From NCBI GenBank assembly GCA_038206475.1, contig JBBRAU010000001.1, positions 3,317 through 67,316 of the forward strand: a stretch of DNA of 64,000 bases, read 5' to 3'. The notes beneath the pieces are model-generated. The model saw nothing but the letters and a program-made list of their open reading frames with translations. It was not told the origin of the DNA and made no database searches. Each line of letters begins with the position of its first letter. The first letter of the stretch is position 1. A program made the position numbers and the translations under genes. The DNA comes from Patescibacteria group bacterium. GTDB lineage: Bacteria > Patescibacteriota > UBA1384 > JBBRAU01. This document shows positions 6,465-61,735 of this stretch, piece after piece.

Positions 6465-7442
6465 TCAATCTTCAGTTGTCTCACCCGGTTTATTATCCGG
6501 TTCGTCCGCTGCGCTTTTTCGCCTGCGATGAAAGGCCTGGTGCACCTCTTTCAAGTGTTGGTTGGTTAAGTGAGTGTAGACCTGTGTGGTCGTGACCGAG
6601 GAATGGCCGAGCATCTCTTGCACGCTGCGCAGGTCTGCGCCGTTTACGAGCAAGTCAGTGGCCATCGAATGGCGCAGGGCATGGGGAAAAACGCGCTTCG
6701 TAATGCCGGCCTGCTGCGCCGCTTGGTCAACGATGCGCTCAATGGCGCGCACTGACAAGCCGCCCGACTGGTCTATTTCCAATGCCGGGCCGGTTTTGGT
6801 GTGACGAATAAACAACGCGGGGTCGTCGTCCTGACGAGCAGACAAGTACCGGCCGAGGTGAAACGCGGCGTCCTGGGATAAGAAGACAATGCGCTCTTTT
6901 TTGCCTTTGCCAATGACGCTGAACTCGCCGCGTTCCAGGTTTATATTTTTGCTCCCCAACCTGGCCAACTCTGATACGCGCAGGCCGGTTGAATAGAGCA
7001 TCTCCAAAATAGCGCGGTTCCTAAGGCTCGCTATACCGTCGCCGCCGTAGGCGTGCATCAACTGTTCAACTTCATCATTTTCCAAAAACTGGATTTGTCG
7101 CGGTTCGGCTTTACCCAGGTCCAGCTGGTCAGGGGCCAACACCGTTCGGCCGCGCTTGACCAGGTAGCGCAAGAAGGTTCGAATGGCGATGACGTGGTAG
7201 TTTTGCGTTACTTTTTTTAGCGGTTCACCTTGCTCGTCACGGTAGCGGTTTAGCCACACGCGAAAACCGGTCACGAGCTCCTCGGTGATAGCCTCGACGC
7301 TACCGACCCCTTTAGCCTCAACAAAATCAAGAAAGCGGTGTAGGTAGTGGCGGTAATTGCGGATGGTTAAATCAGATTTTTGCTCGGCCACCTCTAAGTA
7401 GATGTAAAAGTCGTCGAGGTCTTTTTTGATGCCGCTGCTCAT
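6465..7442 (-). CDS. Tyrosine recombinase XerC/XerD family
   Basis: C-terminal catalytic R..HxxR..Y motifs (LRHSMATDLL, HSSVTTTQVYTH). Has an N-terminal SAM-like domain and an acidic, basic-rich C-terminal tail. Confidence 0.85.
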   Translation of the reverse strand: MSSGIKKDLDDFYIYLEVAEQKSDLTIRNYRHYLHRFLDFVEAKGVGSVEAITEELVTGFRVWLNRYRDEQGEPLKKVTQNYHVIAIRTFLRYLVKRGRTVLAPDQLDLGKAEPRQIQFLENDEVEQLMHAYGGDGIASLRNRAILEMLYSTGLRVSELARLGSKNINLERGEFSVIGKGKKERIVFLSQDAAFHLGRYLSARQDDDPALFIRHTKTGPALEIDQSGGLSVRAIERIVDQAAQQAGITKRVFPHALRHSMATDLLVNGADLRSVQEMLGHSSVTTTQVYTHLTNQHLKEVHQAFHRRRKSAADEPDNKPGETTED

Positions 7443-58745: not shown

Positions 58746-58838
58746 GGAGAGGTACCCAAGTGGCTGAAGGGGCGGGTTTGCTAAACCTGTAGGGTTCCGA
58801 AAGGAGCCGCGAGAGTTCGAATCTCTCCCTCTCCGCCA
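58746..58838 (+). tRNA. tRNA-Ser (GCU)
   Basis: Manual fold. Acceptor ggagagg/ccucucc, anticodon loop uuGCUaa, long variable arm, G73-CCA. Confidence 0.9.
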
Positions 58839-58948
58839 AAAAGTGAAACCAGCCTCAGGCTGGATTTGCTTTTTGATTGGCAAATATAAACGATCGATCG
58901 CACAACGCCATCTGTCACTTTGATGCCGTGATGAGTTAGACTAAAGAC

Positions 58949-59416
58949 GTGGTCGAACCAACCGAGCTAACCTGGGAAGCGCCGCCGTTCGTCATATACG
59001 AGCGCGGCAAGTACTGGCGCGCCGCCATGATCGGCGGTTTCGTACTGATGGGCGCCATTATTGGCTTAATGCGGCTCTATATTCCAGCCATCGTCATCGC
59101 TTTGGGCGGCTTAGCCTTAGTAGTCCAAGTGGCCGAAAAGGCGCACCCGATGCTCGTGACGTTAACGGAAACTGAAGCCCATTTTGGCCGACGCCGGCTG
59201 CCCTACCGCGAACTCAAGCGATTCTTTATTTTGAGCGTCGAAGAGCCAGTGCTTTTTTTGGAGCCGAAGCGCGTCGGTGGTCTGCCGCACTCCGTGGTTA
59301 TCAGCGAACATGATCCTCTTGAAATTGAGCACTTTCTCCGTCATTATTTGCCGGAGGCCAAGGAAAATATGGAAACTGGTTTTTTGCGCCTCAATCGCCT
59401 GATCGGTTTTTCTTAA
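58949..59416 (+). CDS. Hypothetical membrane protein (155 aa)
   Basis: Two TM helices, then a beta-rich domain. Confidence 0.45.
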   Translation: MVEPTELTWEAPPFVIYERGKYWRAAMIGGFVLMGAIIGLMRLYIPAIVIALGGLALVVQVAEKAHPMLVTLTETEAHFGRRRLPYRELKRFFILSVEEPVLFLEPKRVGGLPHSVVISEHDPLEIEHFLRHYLPEAKENMETGFLRLNRLIGFS

Positions 59417-59465
59417 AATTGGGTAGCTGGCAGAGCTTAAATTCAAAATCTAGTACAATTCCAGT

Positions 59466-59963
59466 ATGGAGAATGGCGGGAGAAATCCTAACACGCAATG
59501 CTACGTTTGCGCCAAGCCAATCTATAAGCGCCCCTGGGAATTGCAACGCTACAAGTCCGTTTATTGTTCGCTGGCCTGCTATCATTCGACGATCAGACCG
59601 ATATCAAAACGTTGCCCTATTTGCCAGCAGGATTTTAAGCCCTGGAGGCCGATTGCCAAAACCTGTTCTCGAAGTTGCGCTAACATATCTCGCCGTGGAG
59701 GCAAATATTCCAAAGAGTCCTGTGGCAATTACTCCCGCCACAATCTAGAAACACTGAAGTTGGCCTTTGACTTTCAGGAATGCATGATTGTCGGCTGCAG
59801 TTACAAGAAGACGTTCGACATTCATCGCTTGATCTCCGGCAAATCCGGCGGTAAATACGAAATTGGCAACATGTATGCCATCTGTCCCGATCATCACGCG
59901 GAAGTTTCACGTGGATCAATTGCGCTGGAGAAAATAGCTGACGATCAACTGCGAATTATGTAG
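59466..59963 (+). CDS. HNH endonuclease with N-terminal Cys-rich zinc ribbons
   Basis: HNH core CMIVGCSYKKTFDIHRLISGKSGGKYEIGNMYAICPDHHAEV. Several N-terminal CxxC pairs. Confidence 0.75.
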   Translation: MENGGRNPNTQCYVCAKPIYKRPWELQRYKSVYCSLACYHSTIRPISKRCPICQQDFKPWRPIAKTCSRSCANISRRGGKYSKESCGNYSRHNLETLKLAFDFQECMIVGCSYKKTFDIHRLISGKSGGKYEIGNMYAICPDHHAEVSRGSIALEKIADDQLRIM

Positions 59964-59966
59964 CCC

Positions 59967-60051
59967 GGAGGGTAGTGCGAGTGGCTCGCAACTGGTCTTG
60001 AAAACCAGACCGGCCGCAAGGCTGAAGGTTCGATTCCTTTACCCTCCGCCA
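59967..60051 (+). tRNA. tRNA-Ser (UGA)
   Basis: Manual fold. Acceptor ggagggu/acccucc, anticodon loop cuUGAaa, long variable arm, G73-CCA. Begins 4 nt after the HNH stop. Confidence 0.85.
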
Positions 60052-60069
60052 ACATGTCATAGAGACACA

Positions 60070-60096
60070 GCGGCGGGCGAATAAGCCCGTTTTTCG
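60070..60096 (+). terminator. Rho-independent terminator after tRNA-Ser
   Basis: cgggc gaataa gcccg followed by T5. Confidence 0.5.
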
Positions 60097-60109: not shown

Positions 60110-61735
60110 ATGACAGCGCCAGCCACTACCCAACTAGAGTCGCGGGCAACCAGTCTGCAAGCAGAGCAGGCTGAGGCCGCCGCCCGGGCCCGGGCCGAGC
60201 AACTCGGTTTGCCGTATGCCTTTTTGGTGGACTATCCCGCTTTGCCGGATATTCTCCACCTCGCTGATCCAGCTCTGGTCGACTCGGCCCATCTACTGCC
60301 GTACCTGCGAGCCGAAGGCGTCATACGGGTAGCCACTGACCTGCCGCTGTCGGCAGAGCAAAAGCAAGCGCTACTTGATTGGGCCACAAGCCGCAGCGTC
60401 AAACCACAACTCATTTTAGTCTCACCAGCTAGTTTTTTAAGTCTGAAGCGTCTGTACAGTCTGCCAAACAACCGAGCAGCCGCCATCAACCCTACCGGCG
60501 AGATTAATGCCTCCGCCTCACTTCGGGCCATCCATTCGCTGTCCGAGTATGCCGCCGCTTCAGCTTCAGCCTCAACAACCAGTCTGCTTGATGTACTGCT
60601 TGCGGGCGCCGAAACGTTGCGCGCCTCCGACATCCACTTTGAACCAACCGCCGGCGACGTCACTATCCGGCTCAGGATTGACGGTGTCCTTCACCCGGCC
60701 GCCCATTTAACGAAGCCGCAGTACCACTCACTGGTTTCGCGCATGAAACTGCTAGCCAAGATGAAAATTGACCTAACGCACGGGCCGCAAGACGGCCGGT
60801 TTAGTTTTTCGACGGCCGGACACGAGCTTGATCTGCGCCTAGCAACCTTGCCGACCATTTACGGCGAGGGGATTACCATTCGGTTGCTTGAGGCCGGCGG
60901 CTCAATGAAAAAACTGTCCGAGTTGGGTTTTCGGCCAGATTTGCTGACCAAAATGAAGCAGGCATTAACCGAGCCGTACGGCATGGTGCTGCTCACCGGG
61001 CCAACCGGCTCCGGCAAAACCAGCGCCCTGTATGCTATGCTCGCGGAGCTGTCATCGGATGAAAAAAAGATAATGACTCTGGAGGACCCGGTTGAGTACC
61101 GCTTGCCGGGCATTATCCAGAGCCAGGTTGAGCCGGCCAACAAGTTTACCTTTGCCTCTGGGCTACGCGGCGCCCTACGCCAAGACCCGGATATTTTAAT
61201 GGTCGGCGAAATTCGCGACTTGGATACGGCCGAAATTGCCGTCAATGCCTCACTAACTGGCCACCTGCTGCTGTCCACGCTGCACACCAACAGCGCGCCA
61301 GCCACCTTGGCCAGGCTGCTCAACTTAGGCGTGCCGCCGTACCTGTTGGCCGGGGCCATTAACCTGATCGTAGCTGAGCGCTTGGTGCGCAAATTATGTG
61401 ATACATGTGCTAAGCCGGCACCCATTAAGCCGGAAATTGCCGCCCTGCTCAAGCGTTACTTCCCGAAGCAGCCGACGCCAACAACGCTGCTGCAGGCAGT
61501 TGGCTGCCCAGTTTGTGCCCAAACCGGCTACCTTGGCCGCACCCCGATTGCCGAGGTACTCACGCCTAGCCCGGCCATTGAGCGTGAAGTGATGCACCAG
61601 GCGACTATTGCCGATTTTACTAAAATTGCCATCCAAGAGGGCCTGGTGCCGATGGAGCAGGACGGTTTTTGGCTGGTCTACCTAGGCGTGACCACGCCTG
61701 AGGAGATTTGGCGCGTTACGCGTGAAGATACTTGA
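60110..61735 (+). CDS. pilB: Type IV pilus/T2SS assembly ATPase PilB/GspE family
   Basis: Walker A GPTGSGKTS, Asp box, His box, tetracysteine CxxC..CxxC. TACACT -10-like hexamer 6 nt before the ATG. Confidence 0.9.
   Translation: MTAPATTQLESRATSLQAEQAEAAARARAEQLGLPYAFLVDYPALPDILHLADPALVDSAHLLPYLRAEGVIRVATDLPLSAEQKQALLDWATSRSVKPQLILVSPASFLSLKRLYSLPNNRAAAINPTGEINASASLRAIHSLSEYAAASASASTTSLLDVLLAGAETLRASDIHFEPTAGDVTIRLRIDGVLHPAAHLTKPQYHSLVSRMKLLAKMKIDLTHGPQDGRFSFSTAGHELDLRLATLPTIYGEGITIRLLEAGGSMKKLSELGFRPDLLTKMKQALTEPYGMVLLTGPTGSGKTSALYAMLAELSSDEKKIMTLEDPVEYRLPGIIQSQVEPANKFTFASGLRGALRQDPDILMVGEIRDLDTAEIAVNASLTGHLLLSTLHTNSAPATLARLLNLGVPPYLLAGAINLIVAERLVRKLCDTCAKPAPIKPEIAALLKRYFPKQPTPTTLLQAVGCPVCAQTGYLGRTPIAEVLTPSPAIEREVMHQATIADFTKIAIQEGLVPMEQDGFWLVYLGVTTPEEIWRVTREDT

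Follow-up and report, generated by a model that had tools for sequence, protein, structure and literature searches.

Free-standing homing endonucleases are expected beside the conserved gene that they cut, and HNH-type genes for the nicking enzymes F-TflI, F-TflII and F-TflIV are located within the transfer RNA (tRNA) cluster of phage T5. An example of a nuclease gene inside a phage tRNA cluster is that of SegB, a GIY-YIG homing endonuclease of the T4 and T6 clusters; flanking tRNA genes are co-converted with it and amplified through its action (PMC2330249; PMC13096335). Recent work showed that SegB aids phage escape from tRNA-cutting defences, and its association with tRNA genes across phages is statistical and without isotype preference (PMC13096335). 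Likewise, HNH genes embedded in the tRNA clusters of mycobacteriophages are thought to move themselves together with neighbouring tRNAs (PMC6409571). Furthermore, HNH proteins cutting tRNAs are known from defence systems, namely the effector of a type I-A retron acting on serine tRNA (tRNA-Ser) and the Septu protein PtuB acting on the tRNA-Tyr variable loop (PMC12475279; PMC13096335). In this study, a locus of a Patescibacteria group bacterium was analyzed that lies within a stretch of 64,000 nucleotides (nt), referred to as the window (GenBank assembly GCA_038206475.1, contig JBBRAU010000001.1, positions 3,317 to 67,316 of the forward strand). In this locus, a gene for a zinc-ribbon/HNH protein of 165 amino acids (59466..59963, + strand, ATG start) directly precedes a tRNA-Ser(UGA) gene (59967..60051, + strand). 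In the literature searched, tRNA-cluster endonucleases and HNH effectors cutting tRNA-Ser are described, but a nuclease family tied to tRNA-Ser genes is not. The new aspect is that a whole family keeps to a single amino-acid isotype in phages as well as in bacterial chromosomes, its genes meeting the tRNA at a near-fixed junction.

Viral and metagenome contigs were scanned with the family alignment, resulting in 109 loci, on all of which tRNA genes were predicted; linkage was counted over 80 distinct full-length proteins. A tRNA-Ser gene directly adjoins the nuclease gene in 60 of these 80 family members. It is located directly downstream on the same strand in 50 members, where the nuclease stop codon falls between 65 nt inside and 69 nt before the tRNA and, with a single exception (49/50), overlaps it or lies at most 30 nt away; in a further ten, tRNA-Ser is found 13-135 nt upstream. 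The other 20 include five weak HNH-only matches without a nearby tRNA and two members at contig ends. A tRNA of another isotype is the sole tRNA neighbour at about four loci (L017, L031, L067 and L078). In the window, the stop codon TAG (59961-59963) is followed by CCC and then by the tRNA, corresponding to a gap of 3 nt. Moreover, the codon for the His of the catalytic motif is situated 42-78 nt from tRNA position +1 for 41 of the 51 cases, the window value being 69 nt, and the conserved C-terminal motif D..L.I ends about 15 nt or less from the tRNA.

Linkage was also assessed at loci with arrays of at least six tRNAs, most of them on large contigs from phages that reach 450 kb. In these arrays, 16.7% of the tRNAs are serine tRNAs, and the immediate downstream neighbour of the nuclease gene is tRNA-Ser in 16 of 19 cases (binomial P = 2e-10 against the 16.7% background); leucine tRNAs are as common there as serine tRNAs (58 vs. 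54). The association also holds in bacterial contigs carrying one to three tRNAs. Neighbouring tRNA-Ser genes cover all four serine anticodons and are very diverse in sequence, and in arrays with several tRNA-Ser genes (L012, L015, L039) the nuclease gene is placed beside one of them only, a different isoacceptor in each case. The family is medium-sized: when clustered at 50% identity, about 1,465 clusters match with E <= 1e-10, and 73 of them reach E <= 1e-30. When 50,697 phage records were searched by tblastn with the window protein, only genes of crAss-like phages (25-30% identity) were returned, and these homologues are not located beside tRNA-Ser. In two of these phages, cr55_1 (L118, 3001-4049) and cr4_1 (L119, 2983-3775), the homologue is followed by 0.8-1 kb of unannotated DNA without a predicted tRNA.

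Searches with the window protein itself yielded no Pfam HNH match even at E < 0.1 and no NCBIfam match, and its sole PHROG match was phrog_22514 (E = 8e-4). Among its 15 database homologues, some carry PF01844 or PF13392, and close relatives match phrog_1271 'HNH endonuclease' (P0001 at 7e-15). A profile of the family alignment (A1) matched the McrA HNH domain (6ghc) in the PDB with E = 1.2e-5, the HNH domain of group II intron maturase with E = 5.8e-4 and that of IscB with E = 4e-3. The AlphaFold2 model of the 165-residue protein (predicted local distance difference test score, pLDDT, of 79) contains a beta-beta-alpha unit at residues 118-148, composed of strands 118-121 and 136-139 and a helix at 141-148. 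Foldseek comparison of this model with the PDB gave weak hits (all E > 0.08), among them the HNH proteins TagI, McrA, Cas5-HNH, IscB and Cap5. The C-terminal core of the family alignment reads C...H...GG...N...CPxHH, represented in the window by CMIVGC...DIH119-R120...GG...GN135...CPDH143-H144-AE (residues 111-148; 59796..59909, + strand). The structural Asn (N135) and the metal-binding His (H144) are invariant in the alignment and across the fetched loci. Based on these comparisons, the family clearly belongs to the HNH (beta-beta-alpha-metal) superfamily.

The N-terminal part of the protein is occupied by two zinc ribbons (59499..59678, + strand; residues 12-38, CxxC...CSxxC, and residues 50-71, CxxC...CSxSC), which gave weak matches to MYM-type and YacG-type zinc fingers and whose cysteines C12, C15, C34, C38, C50, C53, C67 and C71 are almost invariant in the family alignment. 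In the public annotation of the 208-kb source contig, the gene call for this open reading frame (ORF) is a product of 59 amino acids starting at M107 (P0286). Since the zinc ribbons are conserved family-wide, the form of 165 amino acids is the real one, and the HNH gene is under-called in the source record. Some relatives (P0155, P0174, P0224, P0230 and P0244) are 360-590 amino acids long and contain five to eight separate stretches matching the profile; they would represent arrays of the zinc-ribbon unit and resemble the longer phrog_1271 architecture.

Two clades are distinguished by the catalytic motif. The 'HH' clade possesses the canonical form VHHKDRN...NLELICPNCHAEEH, and the 'HR' clade, to which the window protein belongs, is characterized by D[IV]HR...GGxYxxGN...CPNHHAE. 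In colicins E7 and E9, Cas9 and McrA-type enzymes, the second His of the 'HH' or 'DH' doublet serves as the general base. R120 of the window protein aligns without gaps with this second His of the 'HH' clade, McrA and the maturase. The window clade has in common with EcoKMcrA (6ghc), the group II intron maturase En domain, the IscB and Cas9 HNH domains and colicin E7 the beta-beta-alpha-metal core with its zinc site of Cys and His, as well as the structural Asn and metal-binding His of the motif. It differs from canonical HNH enzymes by the Arg in place of the general-base His, by a His in place of one zinc-binding Cys (CPNHH instead of CPNCH) and by the two additional zinc ribbons.

Compared with the described systems, the family is reminiscent of SegB regarding its position, since both are small nuclease genes among tRNA genes; SegB cuts the tRNA region, spreads with the flanking tRNAs and promotes rearrangement. 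However, SegB is a GIY-YIG protein of phages that is blind to isotype, whereas the present family is of the HNH type, tied to serine and also stably present in chromosomes. The resemblance is functional only; the domain of the family is HNH and no GIY-YIG match was obtained in the Pfam, PHROG and PADLOC scans. The HNH enzymes of phage tRNA arrays share the domain type and the position within the cluster; however, no sequence relationship to them was detectable in the tblastn search of the 50,697 phage records, and neither serine specificity nor a constant junction is described for them in the literature searched. The family resembles the retron I-A effector and PtuB in that an HNH domain is connected with serine tRNAs whatever their anticodon; in those effectors the connection is a functional one. 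Those effectors work with an ATPase resembling structural maintenance of chromosomes (SMC) proteins and, in the retron, with a reverse transcriptase and multicopy single-stranded DNA, whereas the connection in the window consists of genomic adjacency. The neighbours of the window HNH gene encode a flippase, a membrane protein of 155 amino acids and PilB, and no PtuA-type SMC-like ATPase is adjacent. PADLOC returned nothing for the window protein and a PtuB match (E = 0.003) for one distant family member.

The most likely explanation, to which we give an even chance, is that the family constitutes a free-standing homing-type endonuclease module tied to tRNA-Ser genes. The mobile module would comprise the nuclease gene together with the 5' part of the tRNA-Ser gene next to it. 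A break would be made in or near a tRNA-Ser gene lacking the nuclease and would be repaired from the nuclease-carrying copy, with the crossover resolving inside the tRNA-Ser homology. Such a mechanism would explain the restriction to serine together with the tolerance of any anticodon, the rarity of the gene beside other isotypes, the near-constant ORF/tRNA junction and the occasional location beside another tRNA-Ser paralogue in arrays with several, as well as the presence of copies in the tRNA arrays of phages and, following transfer, in the chromosomes of bacteria. Moreover, if tRNA-Ser genes were broken repeatedly, this would be in line with the local repositioning of a second tRNA-Ser gene of the window, tRNA-Ser(GCU), described below. 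In a distance tree without support values, the window clade falls inside the phage-array clade, at odds with the host phylogeny and pointing to horizontal spread of the family. A mobile character is further indicated by the low GC content of the window HNH gene, and, as indirect signs of presence/absence polymorphism, by decayed copies beside tRNA-Ser and by the placement beside a single tRNA-Ser gene in arrays with several; SegB provides the precedent. If homing is true, recombination within tRNA-Ser homology would be a simple rule for staying with one tRNA family and a source of rearrangement at tRNA-Ser loci.

Several results weigh against homing. The Arg at the general-base position is invariant in about 50 'HR'-clade sequences, including the window protein, and DNA cleavage by this clade is uncertain because this invariant residue replaces the aligned general-base His. 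The 'HH' members reside in ordinary bacterial chromosomes, near genes for tRNA synthetase, ClpB, RuvX, PilM/N and histidine kinase, and there they are nearly always found upstream of tRNA-Ser(UGA) only, which looks like stable inheritance more than ongoing spread. No pair of occupied and empty sites was found among close relatives; the only relatives of the window with readable upstream DNA carry the gene. In addition, exact-match searches of viral contigs with the 5' halves of nuclease-adjacent tRNA-Ser genes retrieved nothing or the same contigs, and the fetched loci contained no two nearly identical tRNA-Ser genes of which just one had the nuclease gene beside it. The ratio of nonsynonymous to synonymous substitution rates (dN/dS) ranges from 0.05 to 0.16 in both clades, corresponding to purifying selection and indicating that the protein is functional; selection of this strength and the stable cellular synteny fit a gene useful to its host equally well.

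Instead of cutting DNA, the family may act on the tRNA-Ser RNA, with the gene kept in cis for co-expression; the protein could then guard tRNA-Ser by binding it, take part in its processing or be a regulated nuclease for it. We regard this main rival explanation as rather unlikely. The linkage tracks the isotype and neither DNA sequence nor anticodon, the adjoining tRNA-Ser genes being highly diverged, and the shared strand and near-overlap imply co-transcription. The invariant Arg amid otherwise conserved motif residues, the low dN/dS values and the stable residence in cellular lineages point in the same direction, and a precedent exists in the retron I-A and Septu HNH effectors that cut tRNA-Ser and tRNA-Tyr (PMC12475279). 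However, an enzyme acting in trans on RNA need neither abut the gene of its substrate nor fix a junction of a few nucleotides or flank the tRNA on either side. With PADLOC, no specific relationship to PtuB or to further HNH proteins of defence systems was found, the matches being generic HNH and 'HEase' models; a conserved partner gene is not present nearby, and decayed copies exist. The latter are frameshifted or truncated and still located beside tRNA-Ser (L021/L080, L082, L005). Regarding the phage 'HR' clade, the HNH domain may be altered in its catalysis and could serve as a decoy, or as a shield from those host HNH nucleases by which tRNA-Ser is destroyed. It is doubtful, and less probable than an RNA-level role in general, that the family is more than a selfish nuclease and a dedicated partner of serine tRNAs, and that the 'HR' protein binds, guards or processes tRNA-Ser, for example protecting phage-supplied tRNA-Ser against HNH effectors of the retron I-A or Septu type, as a two-part counter-defence module in cis that was adopted by some bacteria. 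If the link between nuclease and tRNA is functional, a hitherto unrecognised tRNA-Ser-specific factor would be central to the conflict between phages and hosts over class II tRNAs.

The tRNA adjoining the window gene deviates from an ordinary tRNA-Ser. Its minimum free energy fold comprises an acceptor stem of 8 bp (including A8-U), a D stem of 6 bp with a loop of 3 nt, a T stem of 4 bp and a long variable arm, and the discriminator position is G73. Predicted by ARAGORN, it also matches the tRNA-Sec model RF01852 with 53.3 bits, above the gathering score of 47. The same behaviour was observed for the orthologue in the closest syntenic lineage, represented by locus L002 (6505-6589; 52.1 bits), which is 93% identical and differs only in the anticodon and the variable stems, with compensatory changes. 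Identity as a true tRNA-Sec was rejected since the anticodon is UGA and not UCA, and automated annotation could mis-call the gene as selC/tRNA-Sec. Instead, the tRNA fits the '(8/4) tRNA-Ser / allo-tRNA' class of Mukai et al. 2017, to which it probably belongs judging from its predicted fold. Members of that class, known from phages, proteobacteria and rumen Clostridia (PMC5389517), share with it the 8/4 stems, the long D stem with a tiny loop, the long variable arm, G73 and the match to the tRNA-Sec model. In contrast to those tRNAs, the window anticodon is the ordinary serine anticodon UGA, and Patescibacteria are absent from the host list of PMC5389517. Genes for tRNA-Ser with a long D stem also occur in the fetched phage arrays. 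Such tRNAs as the specific partner of the nuclease were rejected, since 7 of 72 adjacent and 9 of 52 non-adjacent tRNA-Ser genes are of this form.

Along with the HNH gene, this tRNA-Ser(UGA) gene may have entered the lineage jointly from a phage, replacing or supplementing a native gene; we hold this to be unlikely, and it refines, and is compatible with, the homing explanation. The HNH gene nests among phage copies. In a neighbour-joining distance tree, calculated without support values, the window and L002 copies are sisters and group with P0002 and P0003 from short contigs; the next outgroup is L042/L043, a phage contig with an RIIB homologue, and the whole group is nested among phage-array copies. 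Members of the 'HR' clade occur mostly in phage tRNA arrays. Moreover, the rare 8/4 architecture with a long D stem, reported for phages and a few bacteria (PMC5389517), recurs in the fetched arrays, the ORF/tRNA junction is conserved across the family, and the other tRNA-Ser(UGA) inspected in detail, beside an 'HH' copy on a cellular contig (L095), is a canonical 7/5 tRNA. Against joint import, the closest sequences to the window tRNA (79%) are tRNA-Ser(UGA) genes of cellular contigs with an identical acceptor stem, tRNA-Ser genes with a long D stem are not enriched beside the nuclease, and a possible second tRNA-Ser(UGA) of the genome would not be visible from 64 kb. Regarding the nuclease gene itself, the simplest history would be that a phage-type copy was transferred long ago to a position upstream of tRNA-Ser(UGA) in the ancestor of the window and L002 lineages and was vertically inherited thereafter.

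The preliminary description of the locus had proposed that a 1.1-kb cassette, consisting of the HNH gene and the gene for the 155-residue membrane protein, was inserted between two adjacent tRNA-Ser genes. This was not borne out by the closest syntenic lineage, which comprises groundwater contigs of one organism (L002, L003, L004 and L038). There, the gene order is flippase (- strand), 155-residue protein, HNH protein (170 amino acids), tRNA-Ser(UGA), 51 nt, tRNA-Ser(GCU) and pilB, so that both protein genes precede both tRNAs; tRNA-Ser(UGA) overlaps the HNH stop by 9 nt. Protein identities between the window and L002 amount to 56% for the HNH protein, 58% for both the 155-residue protein and PilB, and 59% for the flippase. 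Because these four are equally diverged (56-59%), the HNH gene and its membrane-protein neighbour were already present in the common ancestor, which comes near to the conserved arrangement that the description itself had named as contradicting its proposal. Furthermore, an insertion into the pair UGA-GCU would keep the order UGA...GCU, whereas the window has GCU...UGA, so a simple insertion is not supported. Short direct repeats at the ends of the segment 58839-59966 were also looked for, and apart from the expected resemblance (73% identity) between the 3' ends of both tRNAs nothing was found, target duplications included.

The tRNA-Ser(GCU) gene of the window is 99% identical to its orthologue in L002 and L038, which there lies downstream of tRNA-Ser(UGA), and of the four related lineages that were recovered, three have it in different places. 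In the window it is situated upstream of the gene for the 155-residue protein; L126 (PilB 51%) carries, 237 nt upstream of pilB and as in L002, the 3' end of a + strand tRNA of the GCU type; and in L120 (PilB 60%) tRNA-Ser(GCU) is inverted at the place upstream of pilB. From this, the place beside pilB is the ancestral one, and the window shows a derived arrangement. As far as gene order and divergence tell, the comparison shows that the window HNH gene is an old resident, vertically inherited with the 155-residue protein gene, the flippase gene and pilB, and that the two tRNA-Ser genes stand apart because tRNA-Ser(GCU), with its own terminator, changed its position, nothing having been inserted between them. 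A blastn comparison of the intergenic DNA of the window with L002 and L120 yielded no homology revealing which piece moved. A genome-contig search for syntenic relatives with PilB as query returned a single Deinococcaceae match (34%), and the more distant PilB relatives P0023 and P0024, which have neither tRNAs nor HNH genes upstream of pilB, were uninformative. The contigs of L120 (1-46) and L126 (1-28) break off within tRNA-Ser(GCU), immediately upstream of pilB. In this bacterial group, rearrangements as well as assembly breaks seem to occur at the tRNA-Ser locus. In L002, an exact copy of 17-19 nt of the tRNA-Ser(GCU) 3' end (TCTCTCCCTCTCCGCCAA) was found 128 nt downstream of the tRNA (6733-6878); it resembles a scar left where an element had inserted itself at the tRNA 3' end or had been excised from it.

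The gene for the membrane protein (58949..59416, + strand, GTG start) has a host-like composition with a guanine-plus-cytosine (GC) content of 0.538 and a third-position GC (GC3) of 0.622, whereas the HNH gene is AT-shifted (GC 0.48 vs. 0.554 for the window; rank 3 of 254 windows). Among the data searched, the membrane-protein gene is restricted to the window/L002 lineage, the syntenic ORF of L002 being its counterpart. Its product had no match in Pfam, PHROG, NCBIfam or PADLOC, and a homologue search returned the protein itself alone. Because of the host-like composition and the occurrence in this lineage only, the gene is a host gene that neighbours the HNH gene and lies outside any mobile unit. 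Accordingly, the proposal of a mobile cassette targeting the tRNA array holds for the nuclease, which is derived from a mobile, phage-like stock and linked to tRNA-Ser across the family, and fails for the 155-residue protein gene.

In favour of a cassette dropped between formerly adjacent tRNA-Ser genes, the two tRNAs of L002 are only 51 nt apart and the GC content of the HNH gene is below that of its surroundings; considering the reversed tRNA order, the presence of both genes at the same locus upstream of both tRNAs in L002, the divergence equal to that of the flanking genes, the host-like composition of the membrane-protein gene and the lack of flanking target duplications, such an insertion is highly improbable. 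That the gene stands beside tRNA-Ser by coincidence, as small selfish genes pile up in tRNA-rich regions, deserves practically no credence: HNH and GIY-YIG genes are indeed common in phage tRNA clusters generally (PMC6409571; PMC13096335), but the counts reject it, given the serine enrichment over background, the mere four or so loci with a non-Ser tRNA as sole neighbour in spite of equally abundant Leu, and the persistence of the linkage in bacterial contigs with few tRNAs. The window case itself, a resident copy and a tRNA rearrangement, is ordinary, and the Ser-specific linkage together with the altered catalytic residue is of moderate interest.

Regarding the layout of the locus, the positions of the two tRNA-Ser genes flanking both ORFs, as given in the preliminary description, were confirmed by ARAGORN, Rfam and the ORF list, as was the distance of 3 nt between the HNH stop and the second tRNA. 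The label 'HNH' proved correct at the family level, the window protein itself having no direct Pfam match, and the label 'membrane protein' is reasonable for the 155-residue product, as a helical hairpin coincides with two hydrophobic segments; in its single-sequence model (pLDDT 56), this hairpin (residues 21-75) is confident and the remainder poor. The tRNA-Ser(GCU) gene (58746..58838, + strand; RF00005, 54.2 bits) encodes a canonical class II tRNA in its predicted fold, with a D stem of 3 bp, a long variable arm and an encoded CCA. It is followed by a terminator-like hairpin, CCAGCCT-C-AGGCTGG with a T-rich tail (58849..58873, + strand), which was detected by terminator scan and as an inverted repeat and which probably closes the transcription unit of this tRNA. 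A second terminator-like hairpin, CGGGC-GAATAA-GCCCG followed by TTTTT (60074..60094, + strand), lies downstream of tRNA-Ser(UGA); it is absent from the list of the simple terminator scan and was spotted by direct reading of the sequence. Because they are bounded by the hairpins at 58849 and 60074, the genes for the 155-residue protein, the HNH protein and tRNA-Ser(UGA) would form one transcription unit, with tRNA-Ser(GCU) in a separate one. The second hairpin is followed by the conserved pilB leader motif TACACTA, common to the window, L002 and L120, and by the gene for the PilB/T2SSE ATPase (pilB, 60110-61735, start at 60110). The surrounding genes are cellular, comprising pilB and two pilins of the type IV secretion system (T4SS) type downstream, and a polysaccharide-flippase-like gene and glycosyltransferase genes on the - strand upstream. 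Together with the relatives recovered, these genes indicate a bacterium of the Patescibacteria type.

Further observations were made on contigs carrying family members. Phage arrays with a family member hold tRNAs with odd anticodons, namely CUA (amber-suppressor-like; tRNA-Pyl according to ARAGORN), Ser(ACU) and Tyr(AUA), at L081 about 262 nt after the HNH match, at L053/L077 and at L043 (5410-5477), which is suggestive of recoding, or of non-standard decoding, in the phages concerned. On a bacterial contig (L092, 8920-10020), a reverse-transcriptase (RVT_1) gene is located about 2.5 kb from a pair of 'HH'-clade HNH gene and tRNA-Ser(UGA). Finally, L095 (307-3033) encodes a class I aminoacyl-tRNA synthetase (tRNA-synt_1 and Anticodon_1) with a complete histidine-phosphatase domain (His_Phos_1, residues 443-631) inserted in its catalytic domain.

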